From positions 19,344,001 to 19,408,000 of the forward strand of contig OZ024753.1 of the NCBI GenBank assembly GCA_964016885.1: a stretch of DNA of 64,000 bases, read 5' to 3'. The translations under genes were made by a program, and so were the position numbers. This DNA is from Eledone cirrhosa (Eukaryota). Of this stretch, positions 190-53,690 are shown piece by piece; within the stretch, counting starts at the first letter, position 1, and the number at the start of each line of letters is the position of its first letter. A model generated the notes under the pieces. It searched no databases and was not told the DNA's origin. It saw only the letters and a list, made by a program, of their open reading frames with translations.

Positions 190-328
190 ATCTATCGGTC
201 GCAACTCCAGGTAGAAGGAGCAACGTGAAATAAAGTGTCTTGCTCAAGGACATAACGCATCGCCCGGTCCAGGAATCCAACTCACAACCCCAAGATTCTG
301 AATCCAATTTTCTAACCCCTCAGCCACA
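190..328 (-). mobile_element. tRNA-derived CORE-type SINE fragment
   Basis: Minus strand reads gtggctgaggggttag (A-box-like)...gagttggattcc (B-box-like)...tgtccttgagcaagacact (CORE-like). A related decayed copy lies at ~19030-19137. Confidence 0.6.
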
Positions 329-2060
329 TATACAGGGAAGATTAATCATATTATAAGGTATTTAGTTACCTACCTAGCTATGTATGTGGTTACACACTTG
401 TAAAAATTATCTATTTTGATTATTCATGTTTATTTAAATGTTAATCAATTTCTAGTTATTATTATATATATATGTATATATATATATACATATATATATA
501 TACATATATATATATACATATATATATATATATATATATATATATATATATATATATATATATATATATATATATATATATATATATATATATATATATA
601 TATATATGTATTTATATATATATATATGTATATATATATATATATACATATATATATAGATAGATATATATATATATATATATATATATACATATATATA
701 TATATAGATATATATATATATATATATATATACATATATATATATATATATATATACACACATATATACATATATATATATATATATACATATATATATA
801 TATATATATATATATATATATATATACATATATATATACATATATATATATACATATATATATATATATATATATATACATATATATATATATATATATA
901 TATATGTATATATATATATATATATATATGTATATATATATATATATATATATATATATATATGTATGTATATATATATATATATGTATATATATAAATA
1001 TATATATATGTATATATATATATATATATATACATATATATATATATATATATATATATAAATATATATATATGTATATATATATATATATATATACATA
1101 TATATATATAATATATATATATATATATATATATATATATATGTATATATACATGTGTATATATATATATATATATATATACATAATATATAATAATAAC
1201 TAGAAATTGATTAACATATGAATAAACATGAATAATCAAAAGAGATAATTTTTACAAGTGTGTAACCACAAACATACCTAAGTAGGTAACTAATTACCTT
1301 ATAATATGATTAATCTTCCCTGTATATATTCCATTAAAGAAATATAGATCACCAATTAATCGGATGGTAAACCACAGAACTGGATACTTGGATTTTCAAC
1401 AAGGAAGAATTGCCAGCATTCTGTGTTTACACTTCAAGTTCAAATCACCGACTGGCCAGCAACACGTGCTATATCTACTAGAAATACACACATCATACTA
1501 GCTTCGTCCCAGTGGCGTGAATAGGGTTATTGACAACTAGAAACAACAGTCTAGTTCCTTCAACAGAGTTAGCTCTACAATTAAGGAGCCGTATTTATAT
1601 ATCTATATCCAAAATTAAGATAAATGAAATGAATTTAGTCTAAATCAAAATTATGAGTGTCATGCCAGAAATACATGCGCCATATCACCCGCAAAATAAG
1701 CTCTAAGATTATAAAGAGTAGGTCCGAGGATTTAATAATAACTAGAAATTGATTAACATATAAATAAACATGAATAATCACAGGAGATAATTTTTACAAG
1801 TGTGTAACCACACATAGCTAGGTAGGTAACTAAATAAAGTTGACCAGAACTTCAAAAATAGATACCTTATAACATGATTAATCTTCCCTGTATATATTCC
1901 ATTAAAGAAATATAGTTCACCAATTAATCGGATGGTAATTGACGGAAGTGGATACTTGGATTTTCAACAAGGAAGAAGTTCCAGCGATGTCTTTCTGGCA
2001 CCCATAATTTTGATTAAATTCATTTGATTTATCTTAATTTTGGATAGATATAGATGTATA
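328..2060. mobile_element. Penelope-like terminal-repeat family: tail-to-tail inverted copies around (TA)n plus a partial tandem copy
   Basis: 328-463 is the reverse complement of 1191-1327. 1191-1418 is repeated directly at 1734-1985. ~1986-2060 is the reverse complement of ~1598-1677. Confidence 0.65.
464..1190. repeat. (TA)n microsatellite
   Basis: Directly visible; source of the poly-IY pseudo-ORFs. Confidence 0.98.
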
Positions 2061-2430
2061 TAATATATATATATACATACCTTTAATATATATCAAGCCC
2101 GTGGCCTAATACTGTGAAGCCATCTCCTTAATAATTCCTCCATGTTTCAACAAGTCCATTATGGATTAAATTGAAATATGGGTAATTAGTTTCACATGTC
2201 CATTTATTTCGTTGTGTACGATATTTCTTAAACAATAATGGTATACAATTGATGGATCTTAAAGTAGAGATCACGTGAACATTACCCACGGTTTATATAT
2301 ATATATATATATGTATATATATATGAATGAATTTAGTCTTTCATCAGTGATCTTCCAGCCTTACTTGGTATTTTATCGCTGGTTTGTGCGAGCAACGGCT
2401 AAAGAAAGTCGTTATATATATATATATATA

Positions 2431-2638
2431 TATTGTTATACTTTGGGAGGGTCATGTTGCCAATAAGAAACACACGCACCAGTTGCTTTCACTTCAATTT
2501 ATTATATATAATAAATTGAAGTGAAAGCAACTGGTGCGTGTGTTTCTTAATGGCAACATGACCCTCCCAAAGTATAACAATATCGGATTCAACACACGAT
2601 TTCAGATAAAGAATCTTGCTAAACATATTCAAAAACGA
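2431..2638 (+). mobile_element. Short fold-back element (family shared with 49668-50447)
   Basis: 2431-2583 is a near-perfect palindrome followed by a ~55-nt unpaired tail (tcggattcaacacacg...aaacga); flanked by (TA)n. Confidence 0.85.
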
Positions 2639-2691
2639 TATATATATATTTATATATATATATATAAATATATATATATATATATATATAT

Positions 2692-3305
2692 GAAAATTAG
2701 GATTGGTGCTCTGAAATAGCGAGTTATACATGAATGTATGTATAGTGTATTTGGTAATACAATGTATGCCTAATTAAAACACATTTTGAAGACCTTGCGG
2801 TATTATTTTAAGGTAGTGACTATCTCACTTACTTCTTTCTTCAACAAACGAAGGGCGATAAGCTGACAGATCTGTTTCACACTTTTGGTGATCATCAGAA
2901 CTTAGCACTCGGTGACCTTTGTTGAAAATTATAGGGGCTGGATTCTAATAGAATTCCAGTAATAATCAGGAACTGATTATGCCGGTCCAGCAAAAATTGA
3001 AAATTAGGATTGGTGCTCTGAAATAGCGATGTATACATGATGCTGGACCGGCAATCGCTCTGTATAATCAGTTCCTGATTATTACTGGAATTCTGTAAGA
3101 ATCCAGCCTCTATAATTTTCAACAAAGGTCAGCGAGTGCTAAGCTCTGATGATCACCAACAGTGTGAAACAGATCTGTCAGCTTATTTCCCTTCGTTTGT
3201 TGAAGAGAGAAGTAAGTGACATAGTCACTACTTTAAAATAATAGCGCAAGGTCTTCAAAATGTTTTTAATTAAGCATACAGTATATTGCCAAATATACTA
3301 TACAT
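2692..3305 (+). mobile_element. Fold-back element with a hammerhead motif in each arm
   Basis: ~2738-2992 is inverted relative to ~3041-3305. The loop sequence gaaaattaggattggtgctctgaaatagcga is also present at 2692. Confidence 0.85.
3140..3185 (+). ncRNA. Type I hammerhead ribozyme motif
   Basis: taagct-CTGATGA-tcaccaacagtgt-GAAA-cagatctg-TC-agctta. Stem I taagct/agctta, palindromic stem III, GUC cleavage triplet. Mirror copy at 2859-2904 (-). Confidence 0.88.
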
Positions 3306-51791: not shown

Positions 51792-51828
51792 TCCTTAATT
51801 TTCGAGATAATATCTCTTCTTCAGAGGG
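51792..51828 (-). ncRNA. Minimal hammerhead motif
   Basis: Minus strand: cct-CTGAAGA-agagat-att-atctc-GAAA-at-TA-agg. Confidence 0.6.
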
Positions 51829-52374
51829 AAATAAAGGTCTCAAACCAGCGTTCTAAATATCTTGCCAAGCTATTCTGACAGGAAATAGTATAGAGTATCT
51901 GTTCTATCTCTAATGTCAAAGAGGAGATAAAGGGGGCCCACCCATATATAGAATGATATTGTTAAATTTTTATAATGAATAAATAACATTTTCAAAAAGT
52001 ACGTTAGTGAAAACAAAACAGTACAATTAAAATTTTGCGGGAAAAATGTGTATATTTTTACTAATTATAGTGTATATAACTGTATACTGTACACATTACT
52101 GGCATATACAGTAATACTAAATGTTAATACAGAATGTTATAATTGAATTTTTGAATAATTGTGAATGTATAGTATACTGTATAATATAATGTCTTACCTT
52201 CTCCAATAAAAATTATACACGTCCAGAGGCTTTCAATAATGAACTTTGGTCTTTCACACTCACTCAATATATATCTCTGGAAGTGTGTGTATGTGTATAC
52301 ATGTACATGTGTATATGTAGATTTATATATATGTATACATACATGCTTTCACCTTGCACAAACATTATTTGACT

Positions 52375-52490
52375 CATTCAAATCACGCCGAGGTTAACTT
52401 TGCTTTTCATCCTGACGGGGTCGATAAAATAAAGTACCAGTAATACACTGGGGATTTTCTGGCCTTGTGACAAACGTAGAAACAATTATT
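52375..52490 (+). mobile_element. Meta-type SINE fragment
   Basis: ttcaaatcacgccgaggttaactttgcttttcatcctgacggggtcgataaaataaagtaccag. Confidence 0.78.
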
Positions 52491-52907
52491 TGACTCATTC
52501 TCTCCAGGGACGTTAGACTGAAGAACTGACCACTAATTGATTTTACATATGTCTTTAACCCATTGATATCAAAAAGTATTTGTCCAACAGCTCATGGCTG
52601 GCACCTCGTGTGCATGTGCAAGTATATATATATACAGTATATATATATCTGTGTGTGCCGATGTATATGTGCATGAATGAATACAGTAAGCCAGTGACTC
52701 TAACTGCCAACACTATCATATATTTTGGTTTCTATTAATTTCCTAGGGAATTGTTTTACCAAAGCATTGGCCCCTTAAGTACTACAATGGGCTCCTCCAA
52801 TGCTACAGTGGTCCCCCGAAGTGCTACTGTGGACCCCCTGTGGCCCACTTGTCATTAGGCAACCTGGCAACCTGATAAACTGTACATATATATATATATA
52901 TATATAT

Positions 52908-53690
52908 AGACAAAAAGATGAAATCGAAAATGCAACAGGAGTTTTATTTAAAAAAAAAATATATATATTTATTTGGTTCCTTTACCGGTTTCGCAGTTCT
53001 TCTGCTTTTCAAAAGTAGAGTTGAAACACACACATACACACACACCCACAAGCACACAAATAAACATATATATATTTACTTTCTTTATTCAATAGAAAAT
53101 CTGAATTCTGACACCCCAGCGAACTAACAATATTCACTGAACCAGAACAATTCTCCCATCCAATTTCTCAGGCCCATTATCTTTTGCTTGTCATAAAATT
53201 CTCTAAACAGGCTACAGAATAGATTTCCAAATAAGGGCGCGAAAATTTAATGGAAACTTGTTCACGTGGCAGTCATAATTTCATTTATAACCAATCAAAT
53301 TATGTTTATTTAAAAAAAGCCTTCGTGAGCTCCCACCCCCTTTTTTTAAAGTAAAAAGAAATTCAAGCACTCATATATGAAAAAAACAACCTGTGCCCCC
53401 CCCCTTGTTTGAAGAACTTTGTAACGCGAACAGTCGCGAAATTTATTATAATTATTGACCAACCAATCAAATTACTTCTCTAAAAACCTGGCATTTTGAG
53501 CCACTTTTTTCCATATAAAACAAGTAACATTCAGAGACCAACCTGATGTGAGAAAAAACCACAGACCCTCCATCTCAACTCTACTTTTGAAAAAAAGAAG
53601 AACTGCGAAACCGGTAAAGGAACCAAAAAAATATATATATAAATTTTATAAATATATATATGCCTTTTCGATTTCATCTTTTTTCATTTA
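52908..53690. mobile_element. Inverted ~120-bp termini with U3-A8 HHR
   Basis: 52908-53025 is inverted relative to 53575-53685. 52980-53015 (-): ctt-TTGAAAA-gcag-aagaa-ctgc-GAAA-ccgg-TA-aag. Confidence 0.72.

Follow-up and report, generated by a model that had tools for sequence, protein, structure and literature searches.

The closest described counterparts of the hammerhead-bearing repeats in a 64,000-nt stretch of the Eledone cirrhosa genome (GenBank assembly GCA_964016885.1, contig OZ024753.1, forward-strand positions 19,344,001 to 19,408,000; hereafter the window) are Penelope-like elements (PLEs) of the Hydra clade. As far as the accessible parts of Craig et al. 2021 (PMC8557442) describe it, that clade shares with our repeats a C-terminal GIY-YIG endonuclease, a CxCX5C linker, the lack of a CCHH motif, RW and DKT motifs, a canonical hammerhead ribozyme near the 3′ end, (TA)n targets, an inverted 5′-clipped copy and a tail at one end. 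The same parts name the formation of tandem and inverted Penelope insertions as an open problem, and the supplement lists Hydra-1_Obim of Octopus bimaculoides with a hammerhead. Most hammerhead motifs have been ascribed to truncated PLEs (PMC4209133), and 31 recently active Penelope-like families have been reported in Octopus vulgaris, with ribozymes unmentioned in the accessible portion of that report (PMC13282606). A second set of counterparts is formed by animal non-LTR (long terminal repeat) retrozymes, for which a derivation from PLEs is argued in the available text of bioRxiv 10.64898/2026.07.22.740005; their helper has so far only been inferred.

The insertions studied here combine hammerhead motifs, open reading frames (ORFs) upstream, (TA)n flanks, two alternative 3′ ends, inverted pairs with one arm of each kind, a haplotype shared by both arms, and read-through of the ribozyme cleavage site. 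They are very probably 5′-clipped copies of at least nine coding Penelope-like families together with two non-coding tandem repeats, and this identity joined to the two-primer mechanism set out below makes, taken together, a likely explanation. Thirteen families are labelled by window site: A (2692), B (4645), M (6545), C (9440), D (10685/41735), E (11158/39421), F (38936), G (41040), H (46900), I (48898), J (49300), K (49668) and L (52908). The 3.0-Gb, (TA)n-rich genome was searched with every family except M, 40 candidates per family were scored out of 312-4498 at first look, and copies were then traced upstream. An unbiased sample comprised 60 stretches of 10 kb at round coordinates.

Two fixed positions of the 3′ end, 35-143 nt apart, were found in every family scored, and the piece between them is the ‘tail’ of the literature. 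The siting in (TA)n claimed in the initial annotation was borne out, with (TA)3 present within 14 nt downstream of 59 of 61 arm ends in the round-coordinate sample against a background of 10%. A search for empty sites, bearing on whether (TA)n pre-existed or was made by insertion, returned candidates for 13 of 166 pairs, all of them nested element ends or simple repeats. In families B, C, D, G, H, I, J and M, otherwise unrelated to one another, a hairpin RCTC...GAGY (RCUC...GAGY in RNA) starts 5-8 nt past the short end; examples lie in the tails at 6390-6480 and 49530-49592. In F it lies at a greater distance, and K, L, A and E do not have it, apart from a loose look-alike in A. The motif was picked by eye in the same tails in which it was tested, and shuffle p-values are therefore inflated, its fixed distance from the short end being the better evidence; tail folding energies were mostly no better than those of shuffles.

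The two arms of an inverted pair nearly always end differently. One long and one short arm were found in 175 of the 182 inverted pairs with both ends classed, a count that omits arms ending at neither fixed site. The rule holds for 80/81 pairs in loci retrieved by the family's own query, where one arm was preset if the query held the tail, and for 95/101 pairs in other loci (50% expected, p 4e-22), a set that includes long stretches chosen around known copies as well as the window itself; within the round-coordinate sample, 23 of 24 pairs obey it. Arms of one pair differ at 46 of 797 common polymorphic sites, versus 5224 of 12887 between loci, and this sharing of a haplotype extends to arms 3-4 kb apart, the average difference between arms being 2%. 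Junctions were resolved in 81 of 132 pairs outside family J, which was left out for its short reference, and most are flush or overlap by a few bases. The short arm extends further 5′ in 26 of the resolved pairs and the long arm in 16, while in 9 resolved pairs the long arm consists of tail only and has no sequence in common with its partner. Lone arms of the two kinds are about equally frequent (11 short, 13 long).

Ribozyme cleavage was considered as the source of template ends and found no support, as arm 5′ ends run across the cleavage site without piling up there: 2 of 162 lie within 2 nt of it and 138 cross it. The ribozyme probably acts elsewhere, processing or circularising multimeric transcripts as a dimer. 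Palindromic stubs of about 190 bp are very common in families C and I (many loci, for example 13444-13643 and 48892-49079); both arms of these stubs end 35-47 nt upstream of the cleavage site, within or at the edge of the ribozyme fold, which suggests that this fold stalls the enzyme.

A two-primer mechanism, in which both ends of a break serve the enzyme as primers and a single uncut RNA is copied two times, is to our mind reasonably probable. The endonuclease would cut both strands of a (TA)n tract, and a dimeric enzyme would grip one RNA at its tail, in Hydra-type families probably through the RCUC...GAGY hairpin. Priming would start from one DNA end at the far site and from its partner at the near one, yielding two facing antisense cDNAs that would stop early and then be joined, mostly flush or over a few bases. 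(TA)n would be left on both sides of the insertion, and later insertions would therefore nest. Much of this has been described in vitro for Poseidon PAc of the green anole (Frangieh et al. 2024; PMC11167929): according to the accessible text, both strands of an AT-rich target are cut and extended, two internal reverse transcriptase (RT) start sites bound the tail, the template is uncut RNA, ribozyme cleavage is not needed, and a dimer is predicted. PAc differs in belonging to another clade, and inverted pairs are unexplained in that text. It reports no strand difference in start site, so the rule that each arm takes one site is an addition, and its cause is one that we infer. A fuller version of the proposal, which we advance tentatively and at a little below even confidence, is that a dimeric RT/GIY-YIG enzyme binds a single uncut RNA through a tail hairpin particular to the clade and primes from one DNA end at each boundary of the tail, always giving one tailed and one tail-less arm; that the same priming from two sites, on circular or multimeric RNA, serves retrozymes A and E; and that this genome, where roughly 200,000-550,000 motifs fall into 20 or more families, may contain a hammerhead population larger than any yet described.

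The best-surviving alternative, which we consider unlikely, is that a single cDNA primed from the far end folds back and copies itself, with the endonuclease trimming the copy at the short end and later central deletion producing the asymmetry. Self-priming has been proposed where a tail on one inverted pseudo-long terminal repeat (pLTR) was noted (PMC3846280), and endonuclease resolution of the tail is proposed in PMC8557442, both in the parts of these papers available to us; the short ends, moreover, lie at AT-rich, target-like sites. Several of our observations count against the two-primer mechanism. Both 5′ ends fall within 10 nt of each other in 39 of the 81 resolved pairs where permutation expects 32.9 (p 0.0045), and some of these symmetric junctions sit at palindromes such as CATATG in family B. 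The haplotype common to both arms would be expected just as much from fold-back or from later gene conversion, a palindrome that afterwards lost its centre could have become an asymmetric pair, and in 51 of 132 pairs the junction was beyond resolution and excluded from the 5′-end counts. Fold-back is opposed by the pairs in which the short arm reaches further 5′ (26/81), by the 9 pairs without common sequence, by single short arms being as frequent as single long ones, and by the anole element, both of whose tail boundaries are RT start sites in vitro in the available text of PMC11167929.

Regarding what the elements are, the initial annotation saw some dozen separate ribozyme retroelements without coding capacity, which a Penelope such as that at 43215 would mobilise in trans. 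Ten of the 13 families instead appear to be clipped 3′ ends of Penelope-like retrotransposons, nine of them traced to genes and one likely. In longer genomic copies a GIY-YIG ORF lies upstream of B, C, K, H, F, G, D, I and L, and the description as non-coding fails for these nine; RT and endonuclease were both seen in B, D, G and K, and the endonuclease with the preceding part of the ORF in C, F, H, I and L. A fixed 3′ end with graded 5′ clipping was found in B, C, D, F, G, K and L. A CxCX5C linker marks the seven Hydra-type families (B, C, D, F, G, H, I); of these, B, C, D, F, G and H lack CCHH and have CxxC and CxH near the C-terminus, as does I, only where its ORF is open. Family B, the one family with its N-terminus recovered, has RWT and DKT motifs as the counterpart of RWK and DKT in the Hydra clade. 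Forty-six homologues were retrieved, almost none of which carried a name. Endonuclease domains are 33-47% identical among the seven, which are therefore separate families, and BLAST found no match among the eleven non-tandem families over their last 330 nt, in agreement with the mutual dissimilarity first noted. In families K and L the linker is of the CX4CxxC kind and the GIY-YIG domain contains Cys/His residues, features shared with Neptune/Nematis as characterised in the accessible parts of PMC8557442, a likeness by described features rather than by tree. Pfam gave no match on the Penelope pieces of the window or on the Hydra-type ORFs, and weak GIY-YIG matches on K and L (E 0.001, below cut-off).

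In the particular case of family B, locus L263 has the hammerhead, the tail and then the ORF start, a partial tandem with the hammerhead in the pLTR; with hammerhead and tail directly before the ORF start of the next unit, priming would therefore be internal to a tandem RNA. Family M is likely coding, one copy in L114 abutting a Hydra-type RT ORF. On the other side of the ledger, the ORF link of H depends on one locus, that of I on one locus and across a long microsatellite, and no ORF was reached for J in the loci examined; J bears the Hydra-type tail hairpin. A Penelope RT/GIY-YIG as engine was well conceived, whereas the single mobiliser at 43215 was not: an ORF of their own is present in most families, and the Penelope at 43215 itself belongs to family D (41735) as its coding arm, joined 5′-to-5′ to D's own untranslated region (UTR) arm at about 43352. 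Independent elements mobilised in trans are thus a very improbable reading overall, refuted for the nine families that run into their own Penelope ORFs with graded 5′ truncation; its outline is true for A and E, with tandem units and ORFs of no more than 31 and 71 aa, and J is compatible with it. Novelty, which that annotation had made depend on the families not being 3′ ends of coding Penelopes, is largely lost, the exceptions being the two ORF-less tandem families and J.

Family A is a head-to-tail repeat with a 317-nt unit and no ORF (longest ATG ORF 31 aa), whose arms reach 669 nt. Family E has a 420-520-nt head-to-tail unit including an internal (TA)n, a longest ATG ORF of 71 aa and arrays of at least 17 units. 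Both have one type I hammerhead per unit and are strongly self-paired when folded as circles (z -3.7 for A and -5.9 for E). Arrays of E occur at L272 (G000:C14:25118500-25128400), L385 and L273, unit length varying with the internal (TA)n, which could itself serve as a target. In DNA anatomy the two families appear to be retrozyme-like, fitting non-LTR retrozymes: like those of the available text of PMC7229834 and bioRxiv 10.64898/2026.07.22.740005, they are ORF-less, low-GC tandem units coexisting with PLEs, with A inside the reported 170-400 nt and E longer. In contrast to the retrozymes described, their (TA)n insertions are inverted pairs in the manner of Penelope, and their two fixed 3′ ends lie at a distance from the cleavage site, a comparison drawn on DNA evidence; the accessible text of PMC7229834 contains neither the word ‘inverted’ nor ‘microsatellite’. 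The one-long-one-short arrangement was seen in 14/18 pairs of A and 15/18 of E, and their arms share variants within a pair, the same trend as in coding families. Units within one A or E locus also share variants, as predicted by a circular and a linear multimer template alike, and neither family has a 5′-end pile-up at the cleavage site. A and E would borrow Penelope machinery in trans. Less favourably, 7 of their 36 pairs break the rule, and they have no exact tail hairpin and ends that match no coding family. A role for A or E as the pLTR of a coding family was rejected, there being no similarity beyond one 22-nt match.

The hammerhead-shaped motifs are, by their sequence, real. A type I hammerhead descriptor was used, with a strict class defined by a CUGANGA box and a closed stem I of at least 4 bp. 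The window has 12 strict boxes, and 60 dinucleotide-shuffled windows (200-nt blocks) had a mean of 0.08 and a maximum of 1, upholding the claim that ribozyme motifs exceed composition-matched shuffled sequence. A CUGANGA or U3-A8 box, a GAAA box, an NUH site and stems I-III were found by the descriptor in at least one copy of all 13 families. The box is of the U3-A8 type in C (9440), G (41040) and L (52908); in A, E and I a U-U mismatch marks the base of stem II. Stem III is mostly a short palindrome or near-palindrome, and the stems of the 13 families, unrelated to one another, have retained their pairing. Among genomic copies of eight families, the core varies at 68 of 5296 letters (1.3%) and the flanks at 2950 of 68871 (4.3%), a 3.3-fold stronger conservation of the core; four families were omitted because the reference copy failed the descriptor, and collection by BLAST may favour intact copies. 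The 21 sites for which motifs had been named carry them for the most part: the CUGANGA box is missing at 2431, 9045, 13445, 46075, 47185 and 53785 because those sites are clipped or decayed, and CUGAUUA has replaced it at 10685 and in the + arm of 48898. With Rfam, no hammerhead was matched at gathering score on the window, nor was any hammerhead family among the best 150 of 174 weak matches in 38000-54500; its miRNA (microRNA) matches were discarded as palindromes and microsatellites. Telling against functional folds, the folding of 5 of 8 motifs does not surpass that of shuffles (z above -1.2), and most single-molecule folds lack stem III.

Across the round-coordinate sample, 82 descriptor matches were found in 599,800 bases, or 73 once the nine in minisatellite L338 are dropped, with 0-2 in five shuffles. 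This is a density of 122 per Mb (bootstrap 72-187), or 98 per Mb without one E array; if the sample is representative, the genome holds about 0.2-0.55 million motifs. The window has 14 motifs in 64 kb and is only modestly enriched relative to about 120 per Mb genome-wide. The share of DNA covered by the family references is 6.9% in the sample and 21.7% in the window. In all DNA examined there are 43 motif clusters, some overlapping, of which 23 occur in at least two loci; about ten further hammerhead families lie outside the window (clusters seeded by L258, L295, L269, L325, L121, L045, L100, L122 and L005). It is barely credible that AT-rich DNA produced the motifs as mere look-alikes by chance or decay and that the palindromes are artefacts of assembly or recombination, for although Rfam hammerhead matches are lacking, folding energies weak and nine matches in L338 false, the window has 12 boxes against at most 1 in shuffles and the 0.6-Mb sample 73 against 0-2, pairing is kept by unrelated stems in 13 families around a conserved core, and arms 2% different on average end at two distinct fixed sites.

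Compared with what is in print, most of the material belongs to kinds already described: it adds members to Penelope-like families of Hydra type and of other types, together with two repeats resembling retrozymes. Publications already cover hammerhead pairs on opposite strands, a palindromic stem III, cores of the U3-A8 kind, the targeting of (TA)n and a Hydra family from an octopus. Indeed, the many families per genome, palindromic helix III, U3-A8 and opposite-strand pairs 100-700 bp apart are all found in PMC4209133; that study gives 2,000-9,000 motifs per genome as against about 120 per Mb here, with different descriptors, so that the figures are not strictly comparable. Counts obtained with other descriptors include about 120,000 in axolotl, 5,000 in mussel and 9,000 in Xenopus (PMC4209133 and the available text of PMC7229834). 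Relative to the Hydra clade of PMC8557442, at least seven families occur together here, 3′ UTRs reach about 2 kb and tails measure 67-143 rather than 30-40 nt; the one-long-one-short rule and the tail hairpin have no counterpart in its accessible parts. New within the literature searched are the pairing rule, the sharing of a haplotype between arms, cleavage-site read-through, the mostly obedient A and E (29/36) and the tail hairpin. That search found no pairing-rule count, tail hairpin or inverted retrozyme insertion, subscription papers such as Arkhipova 2006 being outside its scope.

As a catalogue of known elements with known ribozymes the window is ordinary, and its value is mechanistic. 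Hundreds of young copies from ten families and at least two clades point to a near-strict rule of one far and one near start, one haplotype and an uncut template. The pairing rule can be tested in a reconstituted reaction, and the tail hairpin is a candidate RNA docking element. Annotators should be warned that such palindromes are neither miniature inverted-repeat transposable elements nor miRNA hairpins.

The fold-back form first attributed to the elements applies to the inverted arm pairs, while those at 38936, 41040, 46900, 47185 and 53785 are single arms. The element of family A (2692..3312) has an antisense arm with the long end and a sense arm with the short end, and hammerheads at 2904-2859 (-) and 3140-3185 (+) with stem III loop CAGAUCUG. 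Family E is found at 39421..41012, with an antisense arm of about two units (long end), a sense arm (short end) and hammerheads at 40244-40202 (-) and 40712-40750 (+); as an inverted pair of a diverged subfamily at 11154..12187 (hammerhead 11415-11373 (-)); and as an inverted stub at 46075..46670, which adjoins a long interspersed nuclear element (LINE) fragment and has no hammerhead box.

For the Hydra-type Penelope 3′ UTRs, family B (4645..6480) has a short arm (-), a tailed arm (+) and hammerheads at 4752-4682 (-) and 6285-6355 (+). Family C (9437..10161) likewise pairs a short (-) with a tailed (+) arm and has a U3-A8 hammerhead at 9545-9452 (-); its palindromic stub at 13444..13643, of one short and one tailed arm, is clipped inside stem II, and its single tailed stub at 47185..47330 (-) lacks the box. 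Family D consists of a short-ended arm at 41737..43352 (-), with 1.6 kb of 3′ UTR and a hammerhead at 41841-41777, and a coding arm at 43353..45187 (+) with a broken RT and GIY-YIG ORF (stop near 43571, frameshifts). The coding arm includes the start of the 3′ UTR, ends in (TA)n and is 94-95% identical to the D copies L260 and L261. An inverted D stub at 10601..10921 has a tailed arm (-), a short arm (+) and a mutated box at 10825-10885, and a decayed stub at 53777..53870 (-) has no box. Family F is a single short-ended arm at 38936..39331 (+), with a hammerhead at 39170-39281 and a long stem II, plus a stub at 48627..48866 (+) comprising the hammerhead 3′ half and a 143-nt tail. Family G is a single short-ended arm of a young Penelope (99% identical) at 41040..41594 (+), with a U3-A8 hammerhead at 41501-41547. 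Five copies of G with a common downstream flank at G000:C4:204.12-204.59 Mb (L236-L240) point to a segmental duplication or a larger carrier element. The single arm of the older family H, whose copies are 80-90% identical, lies at 46900..47048 (-) with a hammerhead at 47008-46952, and the Hydra-type endonuclease ORF was seen upstream in L212/L269. Family I forms a palindromic stub at 48892..49079, folded at stem I into a short and a tailed arm, with its Hydra-type endonuclease ORF upstream in L271; a stub of a diverged subfamily at 9045..9185, about 81-85% identical to 48898, lacks the box.

Family M (6545..7960) has a long short-ended arm (-) with a canonical hammerhead at 6631-6590; the final 42 nt of its tail, at about 7919-7960 (+), are attached to this arm. 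Family J is an inverted stub at 49300..49592 with a short and a tailed arm and a hammerhead at 49395-49336 (-). The CX4CxxC-type Penelope 3′ UTRs are both inverted pairs: K at 49668..50444, with hammerheads at 49871-49827 (-) and 50188-50232 (+), and L at 52903..53754, with a U3-A8 hammerhead near 53016-52975 (-) and stem III ACCGGU. A further K stub at 2430..2636 is an inverted pair of a short-ended and a tailed arm without a hammerhead box.

Other repeats are also present. A (TA)n-bounded repeat with a unit of about 540 nt at 328-461 and 1188-2052, also seen in L394, L012, L085 and L241, has tandem and inverted arms as in A and E and no hammerhead by descriptor, the element at 328 included; its minus strand contains a GAAG-CUAG-UA stretch resembling a decayed hammerhead 3′ half, and in L394 this region recurs about 3.6 kb further left. 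Several LINE copies, 88-94% identical, with RVT_1 and zf-RVT matches and (AAT)n ends, occupy 25600-37620 and 13734-14500. A 47-bp minisatellite at 57616-60341 has 58 copies (92% matches), and a repeat of 48 bp occupies 47501-47714. A short dispersed repeat, probably a short interspersed nuclear element, has at least seven window copies, at 14831-14893, 32066-32163, 46698-46826, 52377-52490, 55753-55945, 56952-57087 and 63608-63969.

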